From a virus (lineage: Duplodnaviria; Caudoviricetes), in IMG/VR virus record IMGVR_UViG_3300027969_000041: 64,000 nt of DNA. One strand, given 5' to 3'. Both the position numbers and the translations under genes were made by a program. The notes beneath the pieces are model-generated. The model was not told where the DNA came from. It was given only the letters and a program-made list of their open reading frames with translations, and searched no databases. Numbering within the stretch: position 1 is the stretch's first letter; every line of letters begins with the position of its first letter. Below, one piece after another: positions 47,837-64,000 of the stretch.

Positions 47837-48247
47837 TTATTTGCTCATTAGTTTCATCATTGTGCGTACATGAACGCGATCTTTTTCTTTTTCATCTTCG
47901 GGCAGTTGATCGTAGGGTACATGTTGTGCCGCAGTATAATCGTCTTTTGGGTTACGCTTCATCCATTCAATATGAATGTACTCTGCGGCTTGCTCAATAT
48001 TGTTAGGAAATTTAGTTACAGCTTCTGCGGCAGCTTTACCTGCGGCTAAATTTTCTTGTTGTGCTGTTGGGTGTAATTCCTCAAAAGGCACATTAATATC
48101 CGCTTTTGGACCACCGTTTTTGCTTCTTATCCTAGGAACATTTTGTTCATTTGGTGGCAATGATCTACGCCATTCTTCGTGTGCTGAACTAGCAAATTGC
48201 GTAACGGCATTCTCTGCCAATACAATGTTGATAAACTCACGGATCAT
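47837..48247 (-). CDS. RyR-domain-like protein
   Basis: AHEEW, IHIEW, HVPYDQLPEDEKEKDR. Confidence 0.7.
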   Translation of the reverse strand: MIREFINIVLAENAVTQFASSAHEEWRRSLPPNEQNVPRIRSKNGGPKADINVPFEELHPTAQQENLAAGKAAAEAVTKFPNNIEQAAEYIHIEWMKRNPKDDYTAAQHVPYDQLPEDEKEKDRVHVRTMMKLMSK

Positions 48248-48933
48248 TTACGATCTCCAAAAAGTTGTAATAGGTTAATAAACAAGTTGATGAAATCCAT
48301 ATATAGCGTTAGTGCTCCGCGAATTTCTGCACTATCACTAGTTTCCATACTAAGTTCTTCTCGAATCTTTTGTGTGTCATAGGCAGTTAAGCCAAGGAAG
48401 ATAATAATGGCCAGTGCAGAGATTACCATCTGCATTACAGTACTACCAATAAAGATATTAACAATGCTGGCAATGATGATAGCAATTAAACCAACAAACA
48501 TGAATTTGCCAAGACTGTCTAGGCTCTGTTTGGTAAAGTACCCGTAGCCACTCATTACACCAAACAATACGGCTGCACCCATAAAGGCACTGACAATACT
48601 ACCTATAGTGAATATGGCAAAGATTGTGGCAAAACTTAATCCCATTAGGGCCGCAAAGCCATGTAGACAAAGTTGTGCTACCCCTTTACTAGGATTGTTA
48701 CCTAGCACATAACTAACACCAAAGATTGCCGCAAGTGGTGAAAAGATCACAATCCATTTCATCCAACCTGTAAAAAAGAATGCCAACAACTCTGGGCTAG
48801 AGCCTACAAAGTAACTGACAAACATTGATACAATAACAGCAAGACTCATGTGTCCATACACACGACCCATTGCTGAGTTAATTTCGCTGGCAGAACGATA
48901 TGTCATTCCGCCTGTATAAGTTGTTCCAAACAT
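48244..48933 (-). CDS. Bax inhibitor-1 / YccA family membrane protein
   Basis: Seven TMs, TAYDTQ, ALTLYMDFINLF; start moved to 48933. Confidence 0.92.
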   Translation of the reverse strand: MFGTTYTGGMTYRSASEINSAMGRVYGHMSLAVIVSMFVSYFVGSSPELLAFFFTGWMKWIVIFSPLAAIFGVSYVLGNNPSKGVAQLCLHGFAALMGLSFATIFAIFTIGSIVSAFMGAAVLFGVMSGYGYFTKQSLDSLGKFMFVGLIAIIIASIVNIFIGSTVMQMVISALAIIIFLGLTAYDTQKIREELSMETSDSAEIRGALTLYMDFINLFINLLQLFGDRK

Positions 48934-48973
48934 ATTATTTTCCTTTATAGTAAAAATCCTGTTTATGTATTTA

Positions 48974-49002
48974 ATTATACACAAAACAGGAGTGATTGTC
49001 AA
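48974..49002 (-). promoter_or_regulatory. Consensus sigma70 promoter followed by TAAATA
   Basis: TTGACA-N17-TATAAT, then TAAATA at 48973-48968. Confidence 0.8.
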
Positions 49003-49359
49003 TTACTTTTTAACAAAAGTTTTCAAATCTGGCGGAGCCCATCCGACAGGTTTAAGCACTTTGCCATCTTCCCGTTTTCGAACCTTACCTGTTTCTTTAT
49101 CAATCTTAGCAAAGTTAGTACGCATAACTTCTTTCCAAGCACCTTCTGCGTCCCACCCGGCACTATGTATAGCACCAATAGTAACAACTAAAATATCAAT
49201 TAGCGCATCTAATGTTTCAACATCATCTGGCGCATCTTTAAGTTCTCGGTATTCTTCATCAATTAAATTCATATACATATCAAATTGATTTTGATCACCG
49301 GTGACACTTTGGTCACACGCCTTCATAAATTTTTCCTGATCACGAAATGGATTTGTCAT
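49003..49359 (-). CDS. MazG-like / PRA-PH NTP pyrophosphohydrolase
   Basis: LIDEEYREL, DALID, EVMRTNFAK, REDGKVLKP. Confidence 0.85.
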   Translation of the reverse strand: MTNPFRDQEKFMKACDQSVTGDQNQFDMYMNLIDEEYRELKDAPDDVETLDALIDILVVTIGAIHSAGWDAEGAWKEVMRTNFAKIDKETGKVRKREDGKVLKPVGWAPPDLKTFVKK

Positions 49360-49360
49360 A

Positions 49361-49594
49361 TTATCCTCGTCCTGTTGTTGTTTTATTAATTGAGGGACCG
49401 GTGCTGGTAAAGTCAATTCCGGCCATCCGACCTTCATACATTTTACCATTCCATGTCATAGGTAACTTTACACTTTTGTTTAGTACCACAGTTAAGTTTT
49501 GTCGTTCTTTAAACTCGTGTACTGCTGCCTCTACTGTTTTACTTGAGTTTGCTTGTTTAACGGTACAAGTCTCACCGTATCTTGTTACTTCCAT
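49361..49594 (-). CDS. Hypothetical protein
   Basis: 77-aa ORF. Confidence 0.75.
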   Translation of the reverse strand: MEVTRYGETCTVKQANSSKTVEAAVHEFKERQNLTVVLNKSVKLPMTWNGKMYEGRMAGIDFTSTGPSINKTTTGRG

Positions 49595-52415: not shown

Positions 52416-53162
52416 TTAACGAGGCGCAAATTCTTGTTGTAATTTGATATTATCAAAAAACTCTTTTTTAGTATTGCCGTCATCTTTGAATGCACCTTTG
52501 AGTACAGTTGTCTGTGTTAATGAACTATGCGCCATAATGCCGCGATTCTCACAGCATCCGTGTACTGCCTGGATGTAAACACCTAGGTCTTTGGCTCCTG
52601 TGGCTTTTTCGATTTCCCTAGCAATGTCATTACAAAGTTCCTCCTGGAGAGTACCTCGACGGGCACACCACTGTGCGATGCGAGTGTACTTGCTGAGTCC
52701 GATGAGTTTCTCAGCGGCAATAATGCCAATATAAGCAACCCCACTAACGGGTTGGTGATGATGGCTACACATACTGCGAAGCTCACTACGAACAACAAGC
52801 ATACCTTCATAACGGTCCGCTGAGTCGTTGGGAAATGCTGTTGCGTCTGGTGCTGGTTCATATCTTCCTGCCATAATTTCATTAAAGTACATTTTAGCAA
52901 GTCGTCTCGCTGTACCTTTACTGTTAGGATCGTCTTCACGATCAATAAGCAAACGATCTAGCACTAATTCAAATGCTTCTGTAGCTTCGTCAATCAGTTG
53001 TTCTTTGTTATAGTCGTTAACATATTCGCTAATGTTATCGCCTGCCCAAAACCTTTTTCCGTCGCGTCTCATCTTTGCGCGAAGATAGTTACCTAAATAC
53101 TGCTCTTCTTGATAGCCGCCATCGCCTGCCATTGCGTCTAACCCTGTTTGTCTATTTGTCAT
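52416..53162 (-). CDS. folE: GTP cyclohydrolase I
   Basis: TARRLAKMY, SMCSHH, GLSKYTR, LQEEL, HGCCENRG. Confidence 0.96.
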   Translation of the reverse strand: MTNRQTGLDAMAGDGGYQEEQYLGNYLRAKMRRDGKRFWAGDNISEYVNDYNKEQLIDEATEAFELVLDRLLIDREDDPNSKGTARRLAKMYFNEIMAGRYEPAPDATAFPNDSADRYEGMLVVRSELRSMCSHHHQPVSGVAYIGIIAAEKLIGLSKYTRIAQWCARRGTLQEELCNDIAREIEKATGAKDLGVYIQAVHGCCENRGIMAHSSLTQTTVLKGAFKDDGNTKKEFFDNIKLQQEFAPR

Positions 53163-53237
53163 TATAATTGTTCTCCGATGTTAAGGCAGTGGATTGCCAT
53201 ATGTATTAATAGTACAGTATTATTTAGGTTCTGTCAA
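53163..53237 (-). promoter_or_regulatory. sigma70 promoter plus structured folE leader
   Basis: TTGACA-N17-TACTAT; GGCA-AUCCAC-UGCC-UUAACAUC-GGAG. Confidence 0.6.
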
Positions 53238-54128
53238 CCGTAGTAGTGTATTTTTTCTAACAGCGGCATCCAATACCATCATGCTAGCACCTACTTCTTC
53301 TGCGTATTTGAGTAAGGCAGCTGTGTCTTTTGGAAAGCAAGCACCACCGAAGCCGAATAATCCATCAGGACCTGGCACCCTCAAGTGGCTTGAACCAATT
53401 CTTGAATCTAAATTGACCATACTTATCACAGTATTGTAGTTCATACCGCCTGCTATTGCAACATTATGTATTTCATTCATAAATGATACTTTAGTTGCTA
53501 GATATGTATTGATAGTATACTTGGCTAGGGCGGCTTCATCAATGGTGCAGAAGCGAACATTTTCACCGATGCCAGGTTGTCCCCAGCGAATAATACGTTC
53601 TGCATCTCGTTGATATGCACCCACACAACCGCCAATGATAGCAAACTTGCCGTTAGCATAATCTCTACTAGCATCTGCGGCAGTTAAAAACTCAGGAGCA
53701 TGGACTAGATTTTTATGTTTTGTCTGTAGTGCTTTATAAACACTAGGAGGTGCTGTACTTTTGCTAATTATAACTCCATTGTATCCTAAAGATGCAAGTT
53801 TATCTAATGCACTTTCTAGATAGCTAGTATCGCAACTGCCATCATCGCCTTGTGGACTGGGAACACATATAAACACACCTTCGCAGTCTAACAGATCTTC
53901 ATACTTGCCCTGCAGGCCTTTAGGAGGATCTACCAAAATTAGATCACAGGCATGTTCCATGTTATCTCTAATAGCACTGCCGACAAATCCCAATCCGACA
54001 ATACCAACCTTTGGCGGCTTATTAAAAAACATTTTATTTTCTTTCTTTATATTAATATAATTATCTGCAACTTCATCAGCAAAGATAATTTTTGCACCAC
54101 CTAAAGTACCGGGCATGTCAAGAGTCAT
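53220..54128 (-). CDS. UDP-glucose/GDP-mannose dehydrogenase family protein
   Basis: GLGFVG, ICVPSP, KST, PEFL, GFGGACFPKD; start could be 54032. Confidence 0.92.
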   Translation of the reverse strand: MTLDMPGTLGGAKIIFADEVADNYINIKKENKMFFNKPPKVGIVGLGFVGSAIRDNMEHACDLILVDPPKGLQGKYEDLLDCEGVFICVPSPQGDDGSCDTSYLESALDKLASLGYNGVIISKSTAPPSVYKALQTKHKNLVHAPEFLTAADASRDYANGKFAIIGGCVGAYQRDAERIIRWGQPGIGENVRFCTIDEAALAKYTINTYLATKVSFMNEIHNVAIAGGMNYNTVISMVNLDSRIGSSHLRVPGPDGLFGFGGACFPKDTAALLKYAEEVGASMMVLDAAVRKNTLLRLTEPK

Positions 54129-54387: not shown

Positions 54388-55122
54388 TTAGCGACTTATC
54401 CAATCTTTGGCTCGATACGGCTTGCCCATTTTAGCATATGGTATATAACGCATGACCTTTTTCTTTACCCGTTTAATAATAACATGATTATGATCGTAAT
54501 TAAATGCTTTAAGATACATTCTCCAGCAATTAAATTTGCGTCTCATACCTTTTTGGTCTTCGCTGAGATATGCAATAACTTGTTCTTCGTTATTGTTGAA
54601 CTTATCCATTAGTTCACAGGCAATGTTAAATCCGTAGGCATCTATTTCATCACGGTTACCTAAGTACTCCTGTTCTTGCCGTTGTTCAGTTTTTTCTGCA
54701 CTACTGGCATAATCTGGAAGTTCTTTGAACTTTCTACTACGATATTGTCTCATATGTATAAGTTCGTGTAAGATAGTATCTGCAAACAATGCACACATTC
54801 TGTAGAATCGTTGATGGGTTACATATACAGATCCGATAAGAGGATTATAAACAAATACAATTTCTATACATTGTCTACGAGCTTTGTCATCATCGCTGTA
54901 GTAAGCACCACCTGTGTATACATGCCCAAAATCTACTTTTGTATCAGAACGCTTGATAACTTTTACAGGAAGTTGAGATTTAATATGTTTGGAAATTATA
55001 CTATGGAATTTAGAATTGGTTAATTCCTGTCCAACTAGTTTGGGTGAAATTTCAGCCAAAAATTGTATTAGACCTTGACGATCTAGCATTGACCAATCAA
55101 ACTTTGCAGTATTTCTAGCCAT
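54388..55122 (-). CDS. Zincin-like metallopeptidase-domain protein
   Basis: LHELIHMRQ and EIDAYG. Confidence 0.7.
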   Translation of the reverse strand: MARNTAKFDWSMLDRQGLIQFLAEISPKLVGQELTNSKFHSIISKHIKSQLPVKVIKRSDTKVDFGHVYTGGAYYSDDDKARRQCIEIVFVYNPLIGSVYVTHQRFYRMCALFADTILHELIHMRQYRSRKFKELPDYASSAEKTEQRQEQEYLGNRDEIDAYGFNIACELMDKFNNNEEQVIAYLSEDQKGMRRKFNCWRMYLKAFNYDHNHVIIKRVKKKVMRYIPYAKMGKPYRAKDWISR

Positions 55123-55222
55123 TGTACAGCCTTTATAGTACCCAAATATTTAGCTGGGCATAGTTTCTATTATACAATTACTTTTGGTTATGTCAAATAA
55201 ATACTACTATAATTATTAATCC

Positions 55223-55957
55223 ATGCTAAATTTTCTAGAAATTTTACAAAACGGAATTACTATTGCTAGTTCGGGCACCAGTAGTGGTAAATCCAAAGAA
55301 TATTACCAAAATCCCAAAAAATTAGAATCTGCTAACAAAGTATCTTTGGAGGCCCAGCATATAAATTCCGATAGTAAAATTTATACCTGTTGCAATATCA
55401 AACATGCAGGCGGGCTGTTAGCTCAAACATTGCCTGCCCTTAGCCTAGGAGCAACAGTAGATATTGTACCCTTTAACGCTTATAGGTTTATTGCAGATAT
55501 AGGCAATTATACGCATACTCATATAACACCATTGCATGCCAGGGCAATCATGTTAACCAAAGGTTTTGAAAATTTAGATCTTTCAGGAGTTTGGATTACC
55601 TGCGGGGCTGACCCAGTCTCTTGGGAAATTATAGAAGAATTTGTAAAACGTGGTGCAACATTTATGGTTAACTGGGGTATGAGTGAAATTGGACCAATTG
55701 CGATCAATATAGTATTTGATAATATGGAAAAAGTTAAAAGATACAAAGAATTGTCGCCCCCGAATGCAAGTATTTTAGGCAACACTGCATGGTGCCAATA
55801 CAAAATAGTTGATGAAGAACTAGTAGTAAGCGGAGATATTTGTATTTTTAATGGTTGGTATTGTACTAAAGATCGTGTAGTAGATATAGAAGGTACTCTA
55901 TATTATCTTGGGAGAACTAATAAGGAACTAGATTTGTGGGAATCAAAAAAAAGTTAA
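55223..55957 (+). CDS. Minimal ANL-family adenylate-forming enzyme
   Basis: SSGTSSGKSK (A3), WGMSEIG (A5), TKD (A7), YLGR (A8); no C-terminal lid. Confidence 0.8.
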   Translation: MLNFLEILQNGITIASSGTSSGKSKEYYQNPKKLESANKVSLEAQHINSDSKIYTCCNIKHAGGLLAQTLPALSLGATVDIVPFNAYRFIADIGNYTHTHITPLHARAIMLTKGFENLDLSGVWITCGADPVSWEIIEEFVKRGATFMVNWGMSEIGPIAINIVFDNMEKVKRYKELSPPNASILGNTAWCQYKIVDEELVVSGDICIFNGWYCTKDRVVDIEGTLYYLGRTNKELDLWESKKS

Positions 55958-56526
55958 CAACAGTACTTTATTCTGATATCCATAAACCGTCTCTAGAAAA
56001 GTTTTGTAAATTGTGTCAAGAGCAGGGATATAAAAACAATCAAAGTTTAGATGCAATAAAACTTGAATGGTGTTTAGATCAAGGCGGTCAATTTTTTCTA
56101 ACGTATATAGATGATATAATTGTTAGTATTAGTGGTTGTCATCCGTTGCCAGAAATAAGCAAGGATACTTATCGTATTTTGTTTAGGGGAGCAACTCTTC
56201 ACCAATATCAGAATCATCTAGGAATCATGAGCAAAACGCACATGACTTCGATTCCCTTTTACACACATATTCCATTAGCAATCAATTGGACAAATTTATT
56301 AGGAAATAAGCAATTAGTTATAACAACTAACTGGGATAATTCTAATGTTGTTTCTATGAATAAAAGCCACAAGGTATTGGGCCTACTTGCAAAACAGGGA
56401 ATAGTCGATTGCTTAATTGAAAAAACTGAATTATTTTATACTGAACAAACAGTGTGGCAACTAAACAAGGATAGATATACTGAAGTTAGAAATCAGTTCA
56501 AGCAACGGAATAATATAGATGACTGA
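55936..56526 (+). CDS. GNAT-like acyltransferase
   Basis: IVSISGCH..YRILFRGATL..; fold inferred. Confidence 0.5.
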   Translation: MGIKKKLTTVLYSDIHKPSLEKFCKLCQEQGYKNNQSLDAIKLEWCLDQGGQFFLTYIDDIIVSISGCHPLPEISKDTYRILFRGATLHQYQNHLGIMSKTHMTSIPFYTHIPLAINWTNLLGNKQLVITTNWDNSNVVSMNKSHKVLGLLAKQGIVDCLIEKTELFYTEQTVWQLNKDRYTEVRNQFKQRNNIDD

Positions 56527-57256
56527 TCATAAAAACTATCTATTCATACTTGCAAATCAAGGTGCCGGTGGACATCGCCTAGGTAGGTTAATCAGCACAC
56601 TTGACTCAGTGTACTGGTATGCATCTGAAAAAAATGGAATAACCCCTAACCAATTATTTCTTGATTATAGTCCTAATCGTGTATCAGGTAAAGATATCAG
56701 TGAATATCATTATGATAGATTAATTGGAGAACATACAGTTCCCTTAGTAGGAGAACGTATAGAAGTTTGGTGGAACAAAACTGACATAGATTTTTACTAT
56801 AATTCTGTATGGGCATCGAGGATGTCTAAATTTTCTGATATCTTAGACACACAATATCTACATTGGGTATTACACGACACCCCCTTATCCATGCTAAACA
56901 GATTTTCAAATGCAAAAGTTATTTCTCTAATTGACACAGACATAGATAGTGTCGCTGATCGATATTTGAAAACTACGGCAAAGTTTCCGGCATACTATAA
57001 ATTGCCCGGCCTCAAACCAGATTACAAAAATCAATATGCACAAGATGTATGTGCGTTAGAAAAAAAGAACCCAGGGGCAACCTTGCAAGATTTATGGGAA
57101 TATCAAAACCCTAAACAGAACTATTTGCAATTTGTTAAAAATAAACTAGCGTTAGATAATAACCAGCGTATAAAAACAGATCACCCCAGGCATTTAAAAA
57201 TAACCTGGGGTAATCTAGATCTAATATCAATTGAGAAGTTTATAAAACTACCTTAA
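56519..57256 (+). CDS. P-loop sulfotransferase/kinase-like protein
   Basis: LFILANQGAGGHRLGRL, then helical body. Confidence 0.45.
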   Translation: MTDHKNYLFILANQGAGGHRLGRLISTLDSVYWYASEKNGITPNQLFLDYSPNRVSGKDISEYHYDRLIGEHTVPLVGERIEVWWNKTDIDFYYNSVWASRMSKFSDILDTQYLHWVLHDTPLSMLNRFSNAKVISLIDTDIDSVADRYLKTTAKFPAYYKLPGLKPDYKNQYAQDVCALEKKNPGATLQDLWEYQNPKQNYLQFVKNKLALDNNQRIKTDHPRHLKITWGNLDLISIEKFIKLP

Positions 57257-57813
57257 GATTTTACAAACAGTCTAGTTAATATTGGACTGGTTTCGGGGAG
57301 TGGGCCGCCGTAAAACACTGACATATCAAAATTGCTCCAGTTTGAGGCAGTCATACCTGTTGCTACAGAATCCAATACTTGCAATCCATTTACGGCAGAT
57401 TGTGTAACTAACGTATCATCACCAAGTTGTTCATCGGTTAAACCTGTAACTCGCGTACCCCGATTAGTTAACATTTCCTCACCCGACCTTACAAATTTTT
57501 TATAAAGATCTATTGAAATTTCGTCGTTAATACTCTTGAAGAACCAAACTCTTGTTCCAATTGGAGATTTTTCTAATAATGTTGAAAGCAGGTGGCCTGC
57601 TGCCCCAGTTCTAGAAACCGTTAACACATATTCTCCAGACTCGGACTCGGTATATGTTTTGTCAAACATAAGATTAAAAATTTCATCAAATGATCGATAA
57701 ATTAGAGTTCTAGCAAACGAACCTATAAATCTATTGATACTCAGATCATCATCTAAAGTATCTTTAAGAAGCGCATTTGTTCCGTCTAGTCCGACAAAAA
57801 TATTAAGTCTCAT
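57253..57813 (-). CDS. Hypothetical protein
   Basis: 186-aa ORF, no motif recognised. Confidence 0.7.
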   Translation of the reverse strand: MRLNIFVGLDGTNALLKDTLDDDLSINRFIGSFARTLIYRSFDEIFNLMFDKTYTESESGEYVLTVSRTGAAGHLLSTLLEKSPIGTRVWFFKSINDEISIDLYKKFVRSGEEMLTNRGTRVTGLTDEQLGDDTLVTQSAVNGLQVLDSVATGMTASNWSNFDMSVFYGGPLPETSPILTRLFVKS

Positions 57814-57845
57814 ATGTTATTTCCTAGTAGTAAACACAGTTATAA

Positions 57846-58763
57846 TTATTTAGTTGAGTTTTTTGATGCCTGTACAATAAAGTTAATTTGTTCTAGCCAT
57901 TCTCGCCCGTGTCTCTGTTTAAGCAATTCTTCAACTTTAATTTCATTATGGCGATCTATTGCTGTAGCGTTTGCTTGTAATAATTTATTGTTAAAATCTG
58001 TAATGTCCGTACACGGGGTATATGTATTAGTTAATATACCTAGGGCACAACCTTTACCAGCGTTTGTATAAACATCAACTACATCTCTTGGATTTGCTAT
58101 GCCTTTTACAACAATATCTATATCGTTATTGTCTATGTAATTTAAAAAATCTAGATCGTTAGATAATCCTAATTCCAATAGTATATTTGGCACAGACGAA
58201 TAAAATTGTATGGGAATTAAATTTTCTTTTGCAAAACTTAGTAGTCCTGCATTTTCTTCTAAGATTTTTTCGTACATGCGTGAGTCGTTGTTGTACCAGG
58301 TATATATAGGAAAGTCAATGTTCCATCCACCTACAAAATGCCACCATTTGAATGCAACTTCGTTGCCGTTGTATGACAAAATAATTTTTGCATCAGGAAA
58401 ATTTTCTCTGAGCCAATTCAAATTGTTTTTGTAACTGAACCAGTGAGACTTGATTATTTTTATACCGGTTTCCCAATTGTCAAATGGTTTTTTAATTTCT
58501 TCTACAAATTCTTCTTTAGACAGTGCGGTAAGATCTTCAAAATTTTCGCCTATTTTATTATAGGGTCCAAAATAAGCCCCTGAGTGATTTCCTACTTTTA
58601 CCACTCTTCCGCTTGGAAAAGTAACATCCATATTATATCTTGGAAGGTTATCTTTATCGCTGTTATTAATAGACGGGTGTAGTCCAATTAACGCTAAAAT
58701 TCTACTCCACTTTGATCCAGGTGCACCTGTTGCAAAAATTAAATCTTGTCCTGTATAATTCAT
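57846..58763 (-). CDS. P-loop sulfotransferase/kinase-like protein (GAPGSKWS family)
   Basis: TGAPGSKWS, GAYFGP, IKSHWF, GGWNIDFP.Y; paralogue of 62997-63701. Confidence 0.6.
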   Translation of the reverse strand: MNYTGQDLIFATGAPGSKWSRILALIGLHPSINNSDKDNLPRYNMDVTFPSGRVVKVGNHSGAYFGPYNKIGENFEDLTALSKEEFVEEIKKPFDNWETGIKIIKSHWFSYKNNLNWLRENFPDAKIILSYNGNEVAFKWWHFVGGWNIDFPIYTWYNNDSRMYEKILEENAGLLSFAKENLIPIQFYSSVPNILLELGLSNDLDFLNYIDNNDIDIVVKGIANPRDVVDVYTNAGKGCALGILTNTYTPCTDITDFNNKLLQANATAIDRHNEIKVEELLKQRHGREWLEQINFIVQASKNSTK

Positions 58764-59407
58764 TTTTTCCATATCCAAAATAATCTGTACGGGCTTCGGC
58801 TCTCTGTATTTGTTTTTAACGCAACTTTGTCTACCCAGTTTTCTTTTTTATCCCCAAATCTATTAGTTCTGGTTATCAACTCTGGCCCTGAGCATAATGT
58901 TAGATTTAATTCCTCTGTCCAACTATGTACTAAGTCGGTACTCCAGCCATAATATATATTTCTAGAATCACTATGATCTTTCATGTTGCCACGAAATATT
59001 GCATATCCACCGGGCTTTAATACTCGTTGCATTTCTAACAGTTGTTTTTCAATTAATTCTGTTGTTCCAAAATTTATACTTCCAAAGCATATAACAACAT
59101 CTGCGGTGTTATCATTGTACGGTATATGCGTTATGTCTGCTTTTATATCTGCAGAATCATTTACTAAATCAATACCTACTAAATTATCAATTAAAGATTT
59201 GTATTGATTATCGCCGCACCCAAGATCTAATACAAGAGACGGAGTAAGTCTGTTGACAAACTCAATCATTTCCATGCCGCATTTTTCGTATTTGTTAATT
59301 CTCTTTTCTATAAACTTAGTCTTGCCAAGTCTCGGATATTGAATTTGATATCTACGTTCGGGAGGAGTAAATGATTCTTTTAATTTTTTCTCTAAATCGT
59401 TGTTCAT
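58760..59407 (-). CDS. Class I SAM-dependent methyltransferase
   Basis: VLDLGCG, GID, FGSINF, RVLKPGG. Confidence 0.9.
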   Translation of the reverse strand: MNNDLEKKLKESFTPPERRYQIQYPRLGKTKFIEKRINKYEKCGMEMIEFVNRLTPSLVLDLGCGDNQYKSLIDNLVGIDLVNDSADIKADITHIPYNDNTADVVICFGSINFGTTELIEKQLLEMQRVLKPGGYAIFRGNMKDHSDSRNIYYGWSTDLVHSWTEELNLTLCSGPELITRTNRFGDKKENWVDKVALKTNTESRSPYRLFWIWKK

Positions 59408-60210
59408 ACTAGGTCAATAGTCCGTGGGCAAGTTTTTAAAAAATTGTAAGTGTTATCAGTTACACGACCAGTTATGTTTAGTGTGGGTCTATTAAAATGA
59501 CTGAAGTTTGCAGTTCCGTGAGGAATATCTCTCCACGGCCATGTTATACAATCTCCCTTCTTCCATGTTAGGTATTCATTGCCTTGTTTCCATACTTGTC
59601 CGTCATGCTGATTATCTAAGAATATAATAACACGCATTAACTTTCTCTGATCGTAATCGCACTCGGCAAATGTTCTATAGTCATCTCTTTGTTTCTTTAA
59701 TATACCACCGAAGTTATCCAGATGCCAGTAAAACATTTGTCCCGGTTTTTGTACATCAAACTTGATATTGGGTTTGCCACCGGTTAATAATGCTGGATGT
59801 TCAAACCCAAACAGATCAGACATTTGTTGCAGTAGTGGCGGTAATTCTGCATGACGTGTTCTGTTAAGTACGGTATAGGAATTTTCACCTTCGACATTAT
59901 AACCCCATCTCTTAAAATCGTTATATTCCATTGAGTTGTTGTTATCTTGTCTAGTTTCTGACCTATAGTCAAATGTTGCAGGGAATGTTTGCTCAGTCAT
60001 TGCTATAACTTCGTCTGCCCAATTTCCCGAAAATCTGCAAATAGGAACAACAACAGGAATTTCTGATGTTGTATCATCTACCGTTGGATCAAAATGATAT
60101 CGGCTAGTTGCTTTGCAAAATTCATAAAGTCCGTCAAATTTCTCGTAAGAAACTGGCTCCGCAGTTTTTAAGTTTGACCATAACTCGTAGGGGCTTTTAT
60201 CGAAATCCAT
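59404..60210 (-). CDS. 2OG-Fe(II) dioxygenase-like (cupin) protein
   Basis: PGQMFYWHLD..IPHGTAN..R; start at a TAATG overlap. Confidence 0.75.
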   Translation of the reverse strand: MDFDKSPYELWSNLKTAEPVSYEKFDGLYEFCKATSRYHFDPTVDDTTSEIPVVVPICRFSGNWADEVIAMTEQTFPATFDYRSETRQDNNNSMEYNDFKRWGYNVEGENSYTVLNRTRHAELPPLLQQMSDLFGFEHPALLTGGKPNIKFDVQKPGQMFYWHLDNFGGILKKQRDDYRTFAECDYDQRKLMRVIIFLDNQHDGQVWKQGNEYLTWKKGDCITWPWRDIPHGTANFSHFNRPTLNITGRVTDNTYNFLKTCPRTIDLV

Positions 60211-60818
60211 TATAATTTTCTCCATACCCAATATAGTCTAAACGGATTTCCGCCATTACTTCTATCAAGTTTTTGTTTTTGTTTGGTATGAACTTTGCCA
60301 ACAACTTCTAAATTAAATTTGTTGCTAAAATATTCAATATCAGTATCTTCCCAAAAATAGTTATTCTTAAAAGTTGAGGTTAATTGATTCTCAGAATATT
60401 GATCCCATTTTTTTATAACACGCATAAAAATATGTCCATTAGTTTTAACCCACGAAAGTGCTTTATCTAAATTCTTTTCTACGTAATCTCTGTTAACAAA
60501 TTGTATACTACCTAGACATAATAATACATCAACTGAATTTACTTCTATAGGTGCATCTAAAATTGTTGATTGAAAATCTATATTAGGAAATGGATTTGCA
60601 TCAAATCCTATTAGATTTTTAATTTTGTGTTTCCACTTATTATGCCCGCAGCCTGCATCAACTACTAGGCCGGGTTCTAATTTATTAACAGCATCTACTA
60701 ACCATTTTTGATTCCAAGACTGTCGTTCACTAATAGTCTCAGGATCTTTCTTATTACTCCAGGAGTCGGGATTATATTTTTTATCTAGTCCTAATTCCCA
60801 GTATGGATCTGTTTTCAT
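60210..60818 (-). CDS. Class I SAM-dependent methyltransferase
   Basis: VVDAGCG, GFD, LGSIQF. Confidence 0.85.
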   Translation of the reverse strand: MKTDPYWELGLDKKYNPDSWSNKKDPETISERQSWNQKWLVDAVNKLEPGLVVDAGCGHNKWKHKIKNLIGFDANPFPNIDFQSTILDAPIEVNSVDVLLCLGSIQFVNRDYVEKNLDKALSWVKTNGHIFMRVIKKWDQYSENQLTSTFKNNYFWEDTDIEYFSNKFNLEVVGKVHTKQKQKLDRSNGGNPFRLYWVWRKL

Positions 60819-60838
60819 TAATTATATCTTTTGATTAT

Positions 60839-61195
60839 TTAAGTAAAGAGATTACCGAAGATAAAATAATCACAGACAAAAGTTAGTTCTGCACCTATGA
60901 ATACTGCAATCCAATAGTTTCCTATCCAACTCCATAGTTTGCGTATTACCCACCAAGCCGCTAATACTCTTAATGTGTATAAGGCATCATGCTGTAGATA
61001 ATCTAATACACCGGGTAATGCTACTGCATTAAAATAATATCCAAACACAAAAGTATCGTAGGCATAGCTGGCCTGGGCCATAACAAAAACTGCCGCAAAG
61101 AACGGCAGGAATTTGTTTAATAGTTTGACTGCAGGCCCGCTAACAATGAGCCTGTAGCTAACATAGGTAATGTTGGCAATTAGTAGTTCGAACAA
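60839..61195 (-). CDS. Membrane protein
   Basis: Three to four hydrophobic segments; TTG start. Confidence 0.7.
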   Translation of the reverse strand: MFELLIANITYVSYRLIVSGPAVKLLNKFLPFFAAVFVMAQASYAYDTFVFGYYFNAVALPGVLDYLQHDALYTLRVLAAWWVIRKLWSWIGNYWIAVFIGAELTFVCDYFIFGNLFT

Positions 61196-61197
61196 TT

Positions 61198-62157
61198 TTA
61201 TTCAGGTTTAATTTTTTTTGCAAACGGTTGCCATTGTTCGCGTAATCTATGCATCCCTGCTCGGACTCCTTCCGGAGTCTGTTCTTTAGGACTAATGAAT
61301 ATAAATTGTTCATCGTATCGTTCTTTTGTTTCTTTTGAATTAAGAACAGGAATAAAATTCTTGTGGTACCAATCCTGTACTTCTTCTGGAGTATTCTTTG
61401 GCAATATTAAATTCCAGCAAGCGTATACATTTAATCCGGGAATATAGTCCTTTATTAATTTGGCTTTTTCTAACCCCGGCATCGGTTGTTCCCCTGCGAG
61501 TGCAATTAATTTGATCTTTCCTGACTTAACCATCTGTGCGCCTACTGCAATAGGAAACACTCCAAATTCAACCTGCCCTGCTAGTACGTCAGTCATAGCC
61601 TGTGCGGGCCCTTTATACATAATAGTTTCAACAGTATCTTTATTAGGTTTGATTTTTGTAACCATATATTCAACAGCTAATTTATGCCCAGATCCGCCAA
61701 CAGCAAAATTAATCGGCCGACTACCCGACTTAATTTCAGCAATTAATTTTTCCGGGGTATCGATGTCTGATCCTAATTTGGCATAAATCCCTAATGGACT
61801 TTTACCCATATTTGTAACAGGAACAAAATCCATAGCATTAAATTTTACATAGTTTGGATACCAAATTTCTGCAGTAACGTATGTACTTTGACATGCAGGG
61901 ATACCGATATAATGACCGTCATTTTTTAATGTATTAAGATGATTCATTGCAATAGTATCACCTGCTCCTGGCTTATAATCAAATACAAATTTGACTTTTG
62001 CCTTTTCTTCCACCTGTTTAGCTAGAATTCTAAATGCAATTTCGTTGCCAGCGCCCGGTGCATTAGGAACAACAACGGTGATAGGTGCCGACGGTTCCCA
62101 AGCATGTGCAAATATTGCACTACCTAATAATAAAATCGCTGTTAAGAATTTTTTCAT
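61198..62157 (-). CDS. Bug/TctC-family solute-binding protein
   Basis: Signal peptide, VVPNAPGAG, KPGAG, YKGPAQAMTDVLAGQV. Confidence 0.92.
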   Translation of the reverse strand: MKKFLTAILLLGSAIFAHAWEPSAPITVVVPNAPGAGNEIAFRILAKQVEEKAKVKFVFDYKPGAGDTIAMNHLNTLKNDGHYIGIPACQSTYVTAEIWYPNYVKFNAMDFVPVTNMGKSPLGIYAKLGSDIDTPEKLIAEIKSGSRPINFAVGGSGHKLAVEYMVTKIKPNKDTVETIMYKGPAQAMTDVLAGQVEFGVFPIAVGAQMVKSGKIKLIALAGEQPMPGLEKAKLIKDYIPGLNVYACWNLILPKNTPEEVQDWYHKNFIPVLNSKETKERYDEQFIFISPKEQTPEGVRAGMHRLREQWQPFAKKIKPE

Positions 62158-62258
62158 GTTTATATAATCTCCTTAAATATATTTAATAGAAAAAAACAAA
62201 AGTTTTAATGAATTTTGAAACTTCTGATGAAATATTTAACAAAAATAGGAATTTTTTA

Positions 62259-62993
62259 ATGAATACTAGAATTTTTAATCTAATTGTAAAAAAATTAGAA
62301 ATCGCATTTAATTTGCCCAAGTATCAGACAGTTATAGACACTTTAGACAAAACAACCGATCTAGACAGTTTACCATGGACTCCTGCACGTTTTGACAAGT
62401 TTAGGGAATCTATTAAAAAGGAACTTCAATTTAGTGTCGTAGACCTAACAGGTACAGTTAATGAAGTTGTAGATCGCTTAGATAAGAAATACCTAAATCG
62501 ATTCTTTGGAGAAATTTGGAAACCAACTACTGAGATATATCAGTATAGCGGATGGGGATTAGTTGAAGAAATTAATAAAACAGATCCTAAGTCTGTATTA
62601 GATTTTGGGTGTGGATACAATCCGTTCAAAGGTCGTATTAAAAACCTAGTAGGTATTGATCCATATAATAATTGTGCAGACTATATGGTTGATATTTTAG
62701 AGTTCAAAGTACCTCCTGAAAGTTTTGATCATATCATTGTTTTTGGCAGTTTGAATTTTAATAGCCGTGATGAAATCAATGAAAGATTTGCAAAATTAGT
62801 CAGTGTACTAATGCCCAGAGGTAAAATGTATTTTAGAGCCAACCCCGGGATACTATGGCCTGATGGTCCTTATGTTGACATATTTCCGTGGTCGTTTGAA
62901 GTTGCCTTCGAACTAGGACAAACACATAACTTAACCTTGGAAACTTTCAAGAAAGATAACAATAATAGATTGTACTTTGTTTATAAGAAATAA
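62259..62993 (+). CDS. Class I methyltransferase with N-terminal helical (ACP-like?) domain
   Basis: VLDFGCG, GID, FGSLNF; start moved to 62259 after AGGA. Confidence 0.85.
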   Translation: MNTRIFNLIVKKLEIAFNLPKYQTVIDTLDKTTDLDSLPWTPARFDKFRESIKKELQFSVVDLTGTVNEVVDRLDKKYLNRFFGEIWKPTTEIYQYSGWGLVEEINKTDPKSVLDFGCGYNPFKGRIKNLVGIDPYNNCADYMVDILEFKVPPESFDHIIVFGSLNFNSRDEINERFAKLVSVLMPRGKMYFRANPGILWPDGPYVDIFPWSFEVAFELGQTHNLTLETFKKDNNNRLYFVYKK

Positions 62994-62996
62994 AAT

Positions 62997-63701
62997 TTAT
63001 AATTTATTTTGATTATAAATTGCAATACTTACATCTTTAGTACCTTCTGTGTGGATCAAATGTTTGTAGACCCAATCTTGTTCTACAGTATTCTCAATTT
63101 GATCCACGGTCCAATCAAAGGTTGATTTTAGATAATCTGCTGTTAGTGGTTGGATCTCAACATTCCTGCTGTTGCAGAAATTAATAATCCTGTTATTGTG
63201 TTCTGCTATCATTGCCTTCATGGTATCATCGTCTTTGTAATAAGGACGATAATCTGGATAACTAATGTTCCATCCACCTGCCCCGAACCATCCTTGTTCA
63301 CATTTTATGTCGGGGCGCAAGATCATAATGATTGGATTATTGGGCCACGTATCTGCAATATAATCTAAGTTGTGAGAGAAGAAATGGCTTTTGACTAGCA
63401 GCCTGCCGTAGCTAGAGTCTGTCCATTCTCGAGCAATACTATTTTCTACAACCTCTGGATCGAGTAAATTAATGTTGTGAAAGTCTTCTCCATATCCGTG
63501 TCCTGGTCCAAAGTAGACACCTGTATGGGTTATACTTCTTGCCAGTGGAGTTGGCCCAGTGTGCGTATATTCTCTTTCAGGAGATCGGTCTGTAATATTA
63601 AAATTTAACGACTTAATGGCTTGTAAAATATTAGCACTTCCACTCCATTTTGATCCGGGAGCTCCGGTAAACCATACTAGTCTTTCTGATAGATTATTCA
63701 T
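62997..63701 (-). CDS. P-loop sulfotransferase/kinase-like protein (GAPGSKWS family)
   Basis: TGAPGSKWS, GVYFGP, VKSHFF, GGWNISYP.Y. Confidence 0.6.
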   Translation of the reverse strand: MNNLSERLVWFTGAPGSKWSGSANILQAIKSLNFNITDRSPEREYTHTGPTPLARSITHTGVYFGPGHGYGEDFHNINLLDPEVVENSIAREWTDSSYGRLLVKSHFFSHNLDYIADTWPNNPIIMILRPDIKCEQGWFGAGGWNISYPDYRPYYKDDDTMKAMIAEHNNRIINFCNSRNVEIQPLTADYLKSTFDWTVDQIENTVEQDWVYKHLIHTEGTKDVSIAIYNQNKL

Positions 63702-63711
63702 TTAGATTATA

Positions 63712-64000
63712 TTAAAAAACTTTAACACCATTAATATCTTGCCAACGAAGGGCATCGTTCCATGAATTCACCAAAGGCTCGCCTTTAACATTCATGCTAG
63801 TATTCATTAAAATTGGACATCCACTAGCTTTATACCATGCTTCTAATAGTGCCCTAAACCTAGGGTTATCTTCTTTTTCCACAGTTTGTACCCTACTTGT
63901 ACCGTCAACATGACAGATTCCGGGCAGTAAATCGGGCCGTTTACAACGAGCCACAAACTGCATATATGGGCTAGATTTTACTGGCATATCAAAATATAGT
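63712..64000 (-). CDS. Carbamoyltransferase (NodU/CmcH-type), C-terminal part; gene runs off the window
   Basis: SPYM, HVDGTSRVQTV, LMNTSMNVKGEPLV. Confidence 0.93.
   Translation of the reverse strand, partial: LYFDMPVKSSPYMQFVARCKRPDLLPGICHVDGTSRVQTVEKEDNPRFRALLEAWYKASGCPILMNTSMNVKGEPLVNSWNDALRWQDINGVKVF

Follow-up and report, generated by a model that had tools for sequence, protein, structure and literature searches.

Clusters of tailoring genes are known from cyanophages. A dioxygenase/halogenase array was described in Syn9, and operons of 2OG oxygenases, sulfotransferases, and methyltransferases were predicted to modify tail-collar or collagen-like proteins encoded alongside them (Iyer et al. 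2010, PMC2938197); the “sugar- and amino-acid-modification” cluster of S-SSM6a and P-SSM2, with its carbamoyltransferases, methylases, halogenase, and oxygenases, was proposed to act in capsule decoration or to yield a secondary metabolite (Iyer et al. 2021, PMC7824862). Moreover, a viral tctA was reported as an auxiliary gene, with no role assigned, on SUP05 phage contigs (Roux et al. 2014, PMC4164917). To judge from the accessible parts of the first two papers, this earlier literature only touches on the gene cassette described here.

The locus is a tightly packed gene block of a freshwater giant phage. Hereafter, “the window” is the whole 64-kb stretch of DNA analyzed, and “the island” is its last 9 kb (55223–64000). 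The phage-encoded origin originally proposed holds: the source contig measures 201 kb and encodes a DNA polymerase with about 50% identity to those of the jumbo phages Phosso and Atu_ph07. All the genes named in the original prediction were found in the island, and this gene content is backed by Pfam, fold models, and paralogy. The features are as follows:

55123–55222, no strand: divergent intergenic region between the leftward HExxH-protein operon and the mini-ANL gene
55223–55957, plus: mini-ANL, stand-alone adenylate-forming core, 244 aa (Pfam AMP-binding)
55936–56526, plus: GNAT-like partner, 196 aa; GTG start overlapping the end of the ANL gene
56519–57256, plus: P245, P-loop-like protein (GxGGHRLGR), predicted sulfotransferase/kinase-like fold
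57253–57813, minus: 186-aa protein, closing the long minus-strand operon
57846–58778, minus: sulfotransferase-fold paralog with a C-terminal extension, motif TGAPGSKWS
58760–59407, minus: class I SAM methyltransferase, 215 aa (Pfam Methyltransf_11, E 7e-11)
59404–60231, minus: 2OG/Fe(II) oxygenase, DSBH fold, H170-x-D172, H238, R248
60210–60818, minus: methyltransferase paralog, 202 aa
60839–61195, minus: 118-aa protein with four hydrophobic helices, after the binding-protein gene
61198–62157, minus: TctC/Bug-family periplasmic solute-binding protein carrying a signal peptide; heads a seven-gene operon
62158–62258, no strand: divergent intergenic region between the TctC and methyltransferase genes
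62259–62993, plus: methyltransferase with a conserved N-terminal domain of about 95 aa (LPWTPAR motif)
62997–63701, minus: sulfotransferase-fold protein, 234 aa, TGAPGSKWS (structure model)
63712–64000, minus: NodU/CmcH-type carbamoyltransferase, C-terminal part (Pfam E 1e-25)

The 186-aa gene, which has weak homologs in a few related cassettes, was missing from the original list. The repeated orientation switches first noted are real and yield four tight transcription units. From TctC to the 186-aa gene, neighbours overlap or lie no more than about 35 bp apart, TctC being the head of a seven-gene, overlap-coupled operon that holds tailoring enzymes. Parts of the stretch recur without a single mismatch in contigs from two other freshwater studies, which span several of its gene junctions. 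Furthermore, since every methyltransferase and sulfotransferase-like paralog of the 64-kb window falls inside the 9-kb island, and the set recurs together in other phages, the clustering goes beyond chance.

TAAATA motifs are indeed present at the divergent junctions, as originally stated, but a promoter role is not borne out: the hexamer has 39 copies across the window, no better than chance, and the T4 late box TATAAATA is depleted in it (two observed, 7.5 expected). A perfect sigma-70 promoter on the minus strand (TTGACA-16-TATAAT, 55196–55169), predicted to drive the leftward HExxH-protein operon, is the better explanation of the first junction; the mini-ANL gene is preceded by a weaker TTGGTT-18-TATAAT. 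At the second junction, the palindrome TAAATATATTTA stands immediately upstream of the TctC ribosome-binding site.

As far as the cyanophage clusters are described in the accessible text of the two Iyer papers, the island resembles them in being phage-borne, in its size (8–12 tailoring genes), and in combining NodU/CmcH-type carbamoyltransferases, methyltransferases, and several 2OG/cupin oxygenases; their amino-acid halogenase is paralleled in the island’s marine relatives. Within the same limits, the core of the island (a lidless 243-aa ANL, GNAT-like, P-loop-like, and tricarboxylate-transporter genes) is not mentioned for those clusters; unlike them, the island has prominent sulfotransferase-fold enzymes, and no HAD phosphatase was seen in it.

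ANL enzymes activate carboxylates, and their lid domain normally provides the catalytic A10 lysine. The ANL adenylation enzyme originally proposed is confirmed by Pfam (PF00501, E 1.3e-11), though as a truncated form that matches profile positions 200–374 of 384 only: the protein begins at the A3 motif, has neither the N-terminal ~170 aa nor the C-terminal lid domain, and ends 12 residues past the hinge with an invariant C-terminal Lys. By sequence, its nearest relatives are acyl-CoA synthetases of the ANL superfamily (the feruloyl/fatty-acyl-CoA synthetases 8wev/8weu, MenE, and steroid-CoA ligase models), with which it shares motifs A3 (P-loop), A5 (GxSE), A7 (Asp), and A8 (Gly-Arg hinge), all four of them invariant in its own family. 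Unlike that of these synthetases, its family is both large (at least 771 homologs) and uniform in length (all about 243 aa), and a search for longer forms of this family found none. Since both the lid, with its A10 lysine, and the N-terminal subdomain are missing, its adenylation activity is putative. The mini-ANL is also present in Methylophilaceae chromosomes without the remaining cassette.

The predicted GNAT-like protein is present, while its assignment to the GNATs is backed weakly: an Atlas feature search gave a lead, the best PDB matches of the family profile are GNAT acetyltransferases (E 0.011 and 0.73), and weak Acetyltransf_1 matches occur in seven of 32 members (best E 0.021). Two of the three “P-loop sulfotransferase/kinase-like” proteins of the original prediction are sulfotransferase-fold paralogs (31% identity, E 2e-24), while the third, P245, forms a family apart, with likeness to them only around the P-loop strand (hhalign 82%) and an Atlas fold at TM 0.56–0.58 to sulfotransferases. 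P245 and the GNAT-like protein are fused in three lineages (L008, L024, and L076).

Co-conservation was counted in viral loci that, after dereplication, numbered 27, each with 8 kb or more on either side of the mini-ANL and an ANL identity of 41–67%. The GNAT-like protein is the constant companion of the mini-ANL, GNAT-like/P245 partners being found in 25 of these 27 well-covered loci. A tripartite tricarboxylate transporter (TTT) part occurs in 19 (TctA in 16, TctC-type in 19), a methyltransferase likewise in 19, a sulfotransferase-like gene in 17, an oxygenase in 13, and a carbamoyltransferase in six. One locus (L010) is collinear with the window over 12 genes despite 60% ANL identity. The co-inherited core comprises the mini-ANL with its two partners, the GNAT-like protein and P245, as well as one methyltransferase type and tricarboxylate-type transporter parts, the latter represented in this window by the secreted TctC and the small membrane protein. 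Around it lies a variable shell, in which 2OG oxygenases, sulfotransferase-fold enzymes, methyltransferases, and a carbamoyltransferase differ in number. A second truncated ANL is found in marine relatives, which also encode a tryptophan halogenase, radical SAM enzymes, a class IV aminotransferase, and a beta-hydroxylase-like cupin. No cultured phage among 50,697 records carries the mini-ANL, and a TctA search gave only ~25%-identical matches in doubtful records. In the collection searched, the core is absent from every cultured phage, and the sole matches to the sulfotransferase-like protein and to the methyltransferase type are uncultured single-cell “Marine virus” records.

The content of the loci varies strongly. 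Tailoring genes differ even among close relatives, and the five-gene block 57253–60818 is absent from the closest one, so that the tailoring steps are dispensable add-ons. Some loci contain the mini-ANL alone, TctC is found in unrelated contexts (L005), and contigs of co-occurring strains diverge at 62233–62292, a mosaic breakpoint. All this would suit a hypervariable dumping ground of independently useful auxiliary genes, adjacent through shared ancestry only and sharing no pathway. We consider this improbable: co-occurrence extends down to 41–47% ANL identity despite rearranged gene order, which argues for selection and not inertia, the P245–GNAT fusion has arisen or been kept in three lineages, and genes overlap within operons. 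Far from lacking co-conservation across genomes, the set recurs in dozens of diverged contigs, and since the block recurs as a unit across many uncultured water phages, its genes very probably work together. The single functional pathway originally proposed is therefore upheld by this co-conservation together with the fusion.

TTT systems import carboxylates. The Bug/TctC binding protein of the original prediction was recovered with a Pfam E of 8e-20, a signal peptide, and a full-length match to PDB Bug proteins. Its presence had been called unusual; instead, it is among the most conserved parts of the cassette, and relatives encode TctA too. Given the co-conservation of the genes, with transporter parts in 19 of 27 loci, the importer is a core part and no oddity. 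Compared with known systems (TctCBA of Salmonella, Bug proteins of Bordetella, TC 2.A.80), the shared elements are the full-length, signal-peptide TctC/Bug of the window and the 477–502-aa TctA (PF01970) of relatives. TctA lies 1.5–7.6 kb from the mini-ANL in the loci carrying it, and many relatives encode it together with a divergent TctC: the neighbour of TctA, a secreted protein of 353 aa, is such a TctC (hhalign 96%, E 2e-9; BugD as best PDB match). Unlike in the TTT systems, there is no recognizable TctB, and the window phage shows TctC without TctA, which was found neither in the 64-kb window nor within 10 kb in the closest relative. The predicted membrane protein (118 aa, four hydrophobic helices) stands at the place expected for TctB, but sequence comparison with TctB gave no similarity; in relatives, it adjoins the binding-protein gene or lies within a few genes of it. 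In contrast to lone viral tctA/TTT genes, those described here form part of an enzyme cassette and are inherited together with it.

As for the tailoring enzymes, the three methyltransferases are related, as predicted, being mutual paralogs (E 1e-16 to 1e-20) of which just one passes Pfam thresholds. The type encoded at 62259–62993, whose conserved start is an internal MNTRIF, is the one adjoining TctA/TctC throughout the family; an ACP-type serine proposed in its N-domain was rejected, the serine not being conserved. The sulfotransferase-fold proteins of the window match no Pfam sulfotransferase model, whereas the ten best structural matches of the 62997–63701 model (pLDDT 95) are all sulfotransferases. 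Compared with PAPS-dependent enzymes (TPST1/2, Stf0/Stf1/Stf9, and OLS/CurM ST domains), they share the fold (Z 7.6–10.2 over 172–192 aligned residues) and, after strand 1, a glycine-rich loop for phosphate binding, but identity is 10–13%, their loop has the sequence GAPGSKWS, and their invariant residues (His, Asp, and Trp) depart from the classic motifs; the donor is putative. The 5'-PSB Lys/Arg is kept in only 23 of 32 family members and missing in nine, which makes PAPS use uncertain. The 2OG dioxygenase had no match in the Pfam search; its fold model (pLDDT 91), whose structural matches are solely 2OG/Fe oxygenases (Z up to 11.5), and the invariant facial triad plus Arg (H170-x-D172, H238, R248) agree with the original assignment.

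The closest solved folds to the 62997–63701 model are tyrosylprotein sulfotransferases (TPST, Z 10.2, 9.7, and 9.6), and the best oxygenase matches include prolyl hydroxylases, a viral collagen prolyl hydroxylase, and AspH. These are peptide-modifying enzymes, which fit a protein target as well. The cassette might therefore modify phage structural proteins post-translationally, a collagen-like tail-collar fibre being hydroxylated and then sulfated, methylated, or carbamoylated, with the transporter only supplying a co-substrate such as 2-oxoglutarate. The window encodes, at 31089–33926, a collagen-like fibre of 945 aa with a tail-collar end; in 11 marine loci, the cassette has an Mtd_N fibre-like gene as its neighbour; and the prediction of Iyer et al. 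(2010, PMC2938197) concerns such operons. However, the fibre gene is 21 kb away and outside the conserved set, the fold matches are distant (Z ~10, 10–14% identity), and the oxygenase equally matches small-molecule enzymes (AsqJ, Z 11.2; SnoK, Z 10.6). Signal peptides are absent from all the enzymes, which is compatible with this explanation and not diagnostic. It accounts for neither the ANL/GNAT/P245 core nor the importer, the parts with the strongest conservation, and we regard it as possible but unlikely.

Other matches of the same sulfotransferase-fold model act on sugars (Stf0, Stf9, and heparan sulfate enzymes). The carbamoyltransferase, correctly predicted (Pfam E 1e-25), continues past the window (full protein 484 aa in L007) and is of NodU/CmcH type, with cyanophage homologs annotated as “Nol-like”. 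By analogy with NodS/NodU/NodH-type methylation, carbamoylation, and sulfation, the enzymes might decorate a glycolipid or sugar polymer of the infected cell, be it capsule, LPS, or a Nod-factor-like glycan, and could in this way, for example, prevent superinfection. The capsule-decoration or secondary-metabolite proposal for the cyanophage cluster (Iyer et al. 2021, PMC7824862) agrees with this, as does a UDP-glucose dehydrogenase-like gene just left of the island (53220–54128); yet the latter’s product lacks the C-terminal domain and belongs to a different operon. Moreover, glycosyltransferase, flippase, and polymerase are absent from both the island and the conserved set, the carbamoyltransferase is present in just six of the 27 loci, and the importer and the ANL would have no explanation, making a glycan target distinctly unlikely.

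Other phage base hypermodifications employ GNAT-fold (Mom) and P-loop kinase enzymes. The phage has 7-deazaguanine genes, with folE (52416–53162) adjoining the island, and QueD or FolE homologs lie 3–7 kb from the mini-ANL in several diverged loci. The cassette could thus make or attach the side chain of a hypermodified base, for example if 7-carboxy-7-deazaguanine or an imported acid were activated and then joined to a base. This adjacency may, however, be plain synteny, the DNA polymerase also being near in the same loci; the island has no DNA-binding or transglycosylase domain, and at L095, the Methylophilaceae chromosomal locus examined, housekeeping genes surround the mini-ANL, none of the genes scanned there being a 7-deazaguanine gene. 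Furthermore, we know of no precedent in base modification for a periplasmic binding protein or sulfotransferase-fold enzymes. A base target is, in our judgment, highly improbable.

The original prediction had allowed for three kinds of target (small molecule, virion protein or glycan, and base); the evidence leans towards an imported small carboxylate without settling the matter. Our best reading is the uptake, adenylation, and decoration of a carboxylate, with a substrate that is probably amino-acid-like. The halogenase, aminotransferase, radical SAM enzymes, cupin, and second ANL of marine relatives give the cassette a small-molecule flavour and count in favour of this reading, alongside the co-conservation, the operon structure, the invariant ANL motifs, the oxygenase residues and fold, and the sulfotransferase fold; no carrier protein is present in the island, which counts against it. 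Also counted on that side were the mini-ANL’s missing lid and N-terminal subdomain, the missing TctA in the window and near the closest relative’s cassette, the lack of likeness to TctB, the uncertain PAPS use, the likeness of the folds to peptide-modifying enzymes, the five-gene block absent from the closest relative, and the mini-ANL without a cassette in Methylophilaceae.

According to this carboxylate reading, TctC would capture a periplasmic carboxylate during infection, and a TctA permease, phage-encoded in relatives and here possibly encoded elsewhere in the genome or by the host, would import it. The lidless ANL would adenylate the carboxyl group, and the GNAT-like/P245 pair would hand the acyl group to an acceptor; the oxygenase might add a hydroxyl group, and sulfotransferase-fold enzymes, methyltransferases, and the carbamoyltransferase might then cap hydroxyl or amino groups. 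The product could be a metabolite, toxin, or signal, or else a precursor for later attachment to a macromolecule. With about an even chance of being right, the island would represent the local version of a modular “uptake-and-tailoring” cassette, serving a putative carboxylate pathway, that is widespread in uncultured large aquatic phages.

The window belongs to a 201-kb contig from a freshwater phage that has not been cultured. The family-B DNA polymerase of this phage shares 46-50% identity with the enzymes of two jumbo phages, Sinorhizobium phage Phosso and Agrobacterium phage Atu_ph07, and the window further contains genes for a Clp-type protease and a collagen-like tail fibre. Contig pieces from two other freshwater studies are identical to parts of the stretch and span several gene junctions. 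A DNA-level search with the 52-64 kb region did not retrieve any match from cultured phages. Over the island at 55223-64000, where ORF calling returned thirteen genes, the G+C content drops from about 0.40 to 0.35. In agreement with the repeated orientation switches originally described, these genes form four transcription units:

Transcription unit 1, plus strand: mini-ANL (55223-55957), GNAT-like protein (55936-56526), P-loop-like protein P245 (56519-57256)
Transcription unit 2, minus strand: binding protein TctC (61198-62157), 118-aa membrane protein (60839-61195), methyltransferase, oxygenase (59404-60231), methyltransferase (58760-59407), sulfotransferase-like protein (57846-58778), 186-aa protein (57253-57813)
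Transcription unit 3, plus strand: one methyltransferase gene on its own, with the internal Met at 62259 as the conserved start
Transcription unit 4, minus strand: carbamoyltransferase (63712-64000) and second sulfotransferase-like protein (62997-63701)

The genes of the unit headed by TctC overlap or are separated by gaps of no more than about 35 bp. Pfam matches were obtained for the 244-aa ANL fragment, TctC, the methyltransferases (one clear and two weak) and the C-terminal part of the carbamoyltransferase. An all-against-all BLAST recovered three methyltransferases and two P-loop proteins as paralogs, with no further copies in the 64 kb. Together with the fold models, these data bear out the gene content of the original prediction, the GNAT assignment being only weakly signalled; the 186-aa protein, to which no function was assigned, had not been listed. 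A RiPP-type precursor peptide was considered and rejected, the island having neither a free intergenic slot nor a conserved small ORF.

The TAAATA hexamers reported at the divergent junctions do exist, but a promoter role for them is not supported: the hexamer is common (39 copies in the window), and its reading as a T4-type late promoter was rejected because the T4 late box TATAAATA is depleted in the window. The first divergent junction carries, on the minus strand at 55169-55196, a perfect sigma-70 promoter (TTGACA-16 nt-TATAAT, 12/12), which serves a leftward operon composed of an HExxH-motif gene (54388-55122), a 75-aa gene and a UDP-glucose-dehydrogenase-like gene. The first of them (minus strand) codes for a 244-aa protein without Pfam hits, in which a HELIH motif resembles a metal site; at seven dereplicated related loci its homologs are neighbours of the mini-ANL cassette, and it may therefore be part of the unit. 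The last one (53220-54128, minus strand) encodes a 302-aa UDP-glucose/GDP-mannose dehydrogenase-like protein having the NAD-binding and central domains and lacking the C-terminal UDP-binding domain. Upstream of the island (47837-49449, minus strand), three features lie side by side: a membrane protein of the Bax-inhibitor-1 family (Pfam E 1e-53), a weak RyR-domain match below threshold (E 4e-5) and a MazG/PRA-PH-like pyrophosphohydrolase.

The co-conservation of the island genes was analyzed by scanning viral contigs with a mini-ANL alignment, which retrieved 80 loci (41-67% identity). Dereplication at 90% ANL identity yielded 46 groups; in 27 of these, the ANL gene is flanked by 8 kb or more on each side. 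The genes recur together across these 27 well-covered loci, as follows:

Occurrence of island gene families in the 27 well-covered mini-ANL loci
GNAT-like / P245 partners: 25/27
Any tricarboxylate-transporter gene: 19/27
TctC-type protein: 19/27
Methyltransferase family: 19/27
Sulfotransferase-like family: 17/27
TctA: 16/27
Oxygenase family: 13/27
118-aa membrane protein: 7/27
Carbamoyltransferase: 6/27

The original interpretation as a phage-encoded pathway is thus partly supported: there is good support for a functional unit whose genes are inherited together, with several candidate targets. The cassette consists of a conserved core and a variable set of tailoring enzymes. On a 143-kb contig (L010), twelve genes are collinear with the window, with an ANL identity of only 60% and with tctA additionally present. 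The closest relative (L001/L063), whose TctC is 94% identical, lacks the five-gene block at 57253-60818 (two methyltransferases, the oxygenase, a sulfotransferase-like protein and the 186-aa gene), so that its membrane-protein gene abuts the P245 gene. Moreover, contigs of co-occurring strains from three freshwater runs diverge at 62233-62292, at the conserved start of a methyltransferase, which suggests a recombination breakpoint between these strains. Marine relatives also encode a class IV aminotransferase, radical SAM enzymes, a beta-hydroxylase-like cupin and, as a neighbour, an Mtd_N fibre-like gene; they also carry a tryptophan halogenase gene between the GNAT-like gene and mini-ANL (as at L062:8762-9835) and, after the TctC-like gene, a second truncated ANL of 388 aa (as at L062:15329-16495; profile positions 126-359).

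The mini-ANL protein matches PF00501 (E 1.3e-11) over profile positions 200-374 only. It possesses the ANL core motifs A3 (Ser/Thr/Gly-rich P-loop), A5 (GxTE), A7 (Asp) and A8 (Gly-Arg hinge), with S16, S17, G18, G22, G152, E155, T215, D217, G230 and R231 invariant in 27 sequences, and lacks the organization of a full-length ANL enzyme, that is, an N-terminal domain of about 400 aa followed by a rotating C-terminal lid with the A10 lysine. The protein begins at the A3 loop and terminates 12 aa past the A8 hinge, with an invariant lysine (K243) that might act as a stand-in for the catalytic A10 lysine. The family comprises at least 771 clusters, all of about 243 aa; a search for longer relatives did not find any, and mini-ANL is absent among 50,697 records of cultured phages. 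The uniform length, the invariant motifs and the lack of longer relatives argue that mini-ANL is a stable "lidless" form and not a gene remnant, with predicted adenylating activity.

As for the partners of mini-ANL, the best PDB matches of the GNAT-like family profile are GNATs, and these matches are weak (E 0.011 and 0.73, over the first 78 residues), as are the Acetyltransf_1 matches of seven out of 32 family members (best E 0.021) and the lead to GNATs given by the Atlas feature neighbours. The original prediction had counted three sulfotransferase/kinase-like P-loop proteins. Two of them are indeed paralogs, and the model of the 234-aa one has a sulfotransferase fold, but the third, P245 (56519-57256), belongs to a separate family, whose likeness to the paralogs is limited to the first strand and loop, plus the Atlas model; its profile did not retrieve anything from PDB sequences. 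Natural P245-GNAT fusions of 413-417 aa, with the P-loop-like half at the N-terminal and the GNAT-like half at the C-terminal, occur in three lineages on related contigs:

L008:10732-11985, P245-GNAT fusion
L024:10733-11986, P245-GNAT fusion
L076:6535-7776, P245-GNAT fusion

A complex prediction for mini-ANL and the GNAT-like protein scored 0.00, giving no verdict and carrying no weight either way. Regarding a possible carrier, no conserved phosphopantetheine-attachment serine of the NRPS/ACP type is present in the methyltransferase N-domain or in the small proteins encoded upstream of ANL. An ACP-like role of the former was rejected because the serine of its "DSL" motif is not conserved (D, G, S, T or E in 15 homologs); the latter, hydrophobic proteins of 67-120 aa directly upstream of mini-ANL in more distant loci and in bacteria, have no ACP motif.

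TctC is a binding protein of the tripartite tricarboxylate transporter (TTT) type, matching PF03401 (E 8e-20) and, over its full length, BugE and BugD in the PDB (E 2e-16), and it starts with a signal peptide (MKKFLTAILLLGSAIFAHA). No tctA gene (PF01970) was found within the 64-kb window; in 16 of the 27 well-covered relatives tctA adjoins the cassette, and hhalign identifies the protein encoded beside it (347-378 aa, with a signal peptide) as a divergent TctC (96%, E 2e-9). With its four hydrophobic helices, the 118-aa protein sits where TctB, the small four-TM subunit (PF07331), would be expected; its identification as TctB was rejected on sequence, with no Pfam hit and an hhalign probability of 0.7% against five bona fide TctB proteins.

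Among the tailoring enzymes, the 234-aa protein was modelled with a pLDDT of 95 and shows the sulfotransferase fold, with the phosphate-binding loop after strand 1. Sulfotransferases fill its top ten VIA matches (Z from 10.2 down to 7.2), and tyrosylprotein sulfotransferases come first (rmsd 3.4 Å over 173 residues at Z 10.2); Foldseek alone is weak (best E 0.016), and the family profile searched against the PDB was uninformative, retrieving only the P-loop strand of adenylate-kinase-like proteins (E 0.06). The 5'-PSB Lys, conserved as Lys/Arg in PAPS-dependent sulfotransferases, is present in both sulfotransferase-fold proteins of the window, the position being K/R in only 23 out of 32 family members. 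A scan of viral contigs with the 234-aa protein alone gave no confirmed relatives.

The 275-aa oxygenase has no Pfam hit, and its model (pLDDT 91) is a double-stranded beta-helix. Its best 50 VIA matches are all 2OG/Fe oxygenases (Z 11.5 to 8.2), with no subfamily prominent, and the iron triad (H170-x-D172, H238) and R248, the basic residue for the 2OG C5 carboxylate, are invariant in 25 sequences, as in 2OG/Fe(II) oxygenases; the profile search of PDB sequences was uninformative (best match AtsK, E 0.6). The methyltransferases are assigned to the class I SAM-dependent enzymes, with a Rossmann-type SAM-binding domain and a glycine-rich motif I: the one at 58760-59407 passes Methyltransf_11, _8 and _25, and the other two, which fall below the Pfam cut-offs, are its paralogs (E 1e-16 to 1e-20) and share D-x-G-C-G. 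The carbamoyltransferase shows its C-domain in the window (E 1e-25), and the full protein of 484 aa, with Carbam_trans_N and Carbam_trans_C, is found on a related contig (L007) that extends the window end by only 1.7 kb; exact words from the window end gave no match in IMG/VR. It shares 45% identity with a protein of the Ralstonia jumbo phage RsoM2USA and 29-35% with cyanophage "Nol-like" enzymes. The RsoM2USA homolog (L115, 123467-125038), full length and the closest in a cultured phage, is annotated only as a hypothetical protein and has no other island genes nearby.

The TPST-like and prolyl-hydroxylase-like folds fit a decoration of the phage collagen-like or tail-collar fibre, which is the main alternative to a small-molecule pathway; bacterial oxygenase/sulfotransferase/methyltransferase operons were predicted by Iyer et al. 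(PMC2938197) to carry out such fibre decoration. Decoration of a glycan is also possible, as is the modification of a DNA base: folE lies next to the island, and several loci have QueD or FolE close to ANL, although this nearness may be synteny only. Turning back to the small-molecule pathway, from the gene content and co-inheritance, which are observed, we infer all the following steps. A carboxylate would be captured in the periplasm by TctC, imported by a TctA permease and activated by the ANL core; the GNAT-like/P245 pair would then move the activated acid onto an acceptor, the oxygenase would hydroxylate it, and the sulfotransferase-fold, methyl- and carbamoyl-transferases would cap the new groups. 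A further-reaching proposal, which we regard as unlikely, is that large aquatic phages possess a complete route of their own, in which an organic acid enters through a phage-encoded TTT-type importer and is activated by a new class of lidless, half-size ANL enzyme, the P245 and GNAT-like partners (fused in some lineages) taking over from the missing lid and carrier. The resulting hydroxylated, sulfated, methylated or carbamoylated (in marine relatives, halogenated) metabolite would have its own role in infection, for instance that of a toxin or signal, or of a precursor used in decorating virions or DNA.

The island is a phage tailoring-gene island of a kind already known, with an uncharacterised core. 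Closest among published descriptions is a gene cluster of cyanophages that encodes carbamoyltransferases, methylases, a halogenase and oxygenases, and for which capsule decoration or a secondary metabolite was proposed (PMC7824862). Viral tctA has been reported on SUP05 phage contigs, its role being not known (PMC4164917), and the literature search found no description linking the transporter to the mini-ANL/GNAT/P-loop core.

Mini-ANL was also retrieved from Methylophilaceae assemblies, two of them single-cell genomes, of a species-representative genome collection. In small Methylophilaceae genomes (L095:9820-10726, plus L092-L094 and L102-L104) it is accompanied by the upstream small hydrophobic protein, without the rest of the cassette; one locus is clearly chromosomal, with genes for DnaB, alanine racemase, RadA-like and squalene-synthase-like proteins and peptide deformylase. 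It occurs in only three of 151 sampled Methylophilaceae genomes, all small. The absence of tctA from four small genomes with mini-ANL is only a hint because they are incomplete. This occurrence, together with the similar G+C content, points to gene exchange with small, low-G+C Methylophilaceae, which does not in itself prove the host, and provides a lead to a host group and a laboratory system.

Studies in cultured systems are lacking for every part of the cassette. The "auxiliary" genes of phages tend to be interpreted singly; here a transporter, an activating enzyme and tailoring enzymes are inherited together, in both freshwater and marine phages. If active, mini-ANL would be an adenylating enzyme working without the domain thought to supply the catalytic lysine. 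Should its product be a small molecule, the cassette would be an unexplored source of virus-encoded natural-product chemistry, supplied by a nutrient importer that the virus itself installs.
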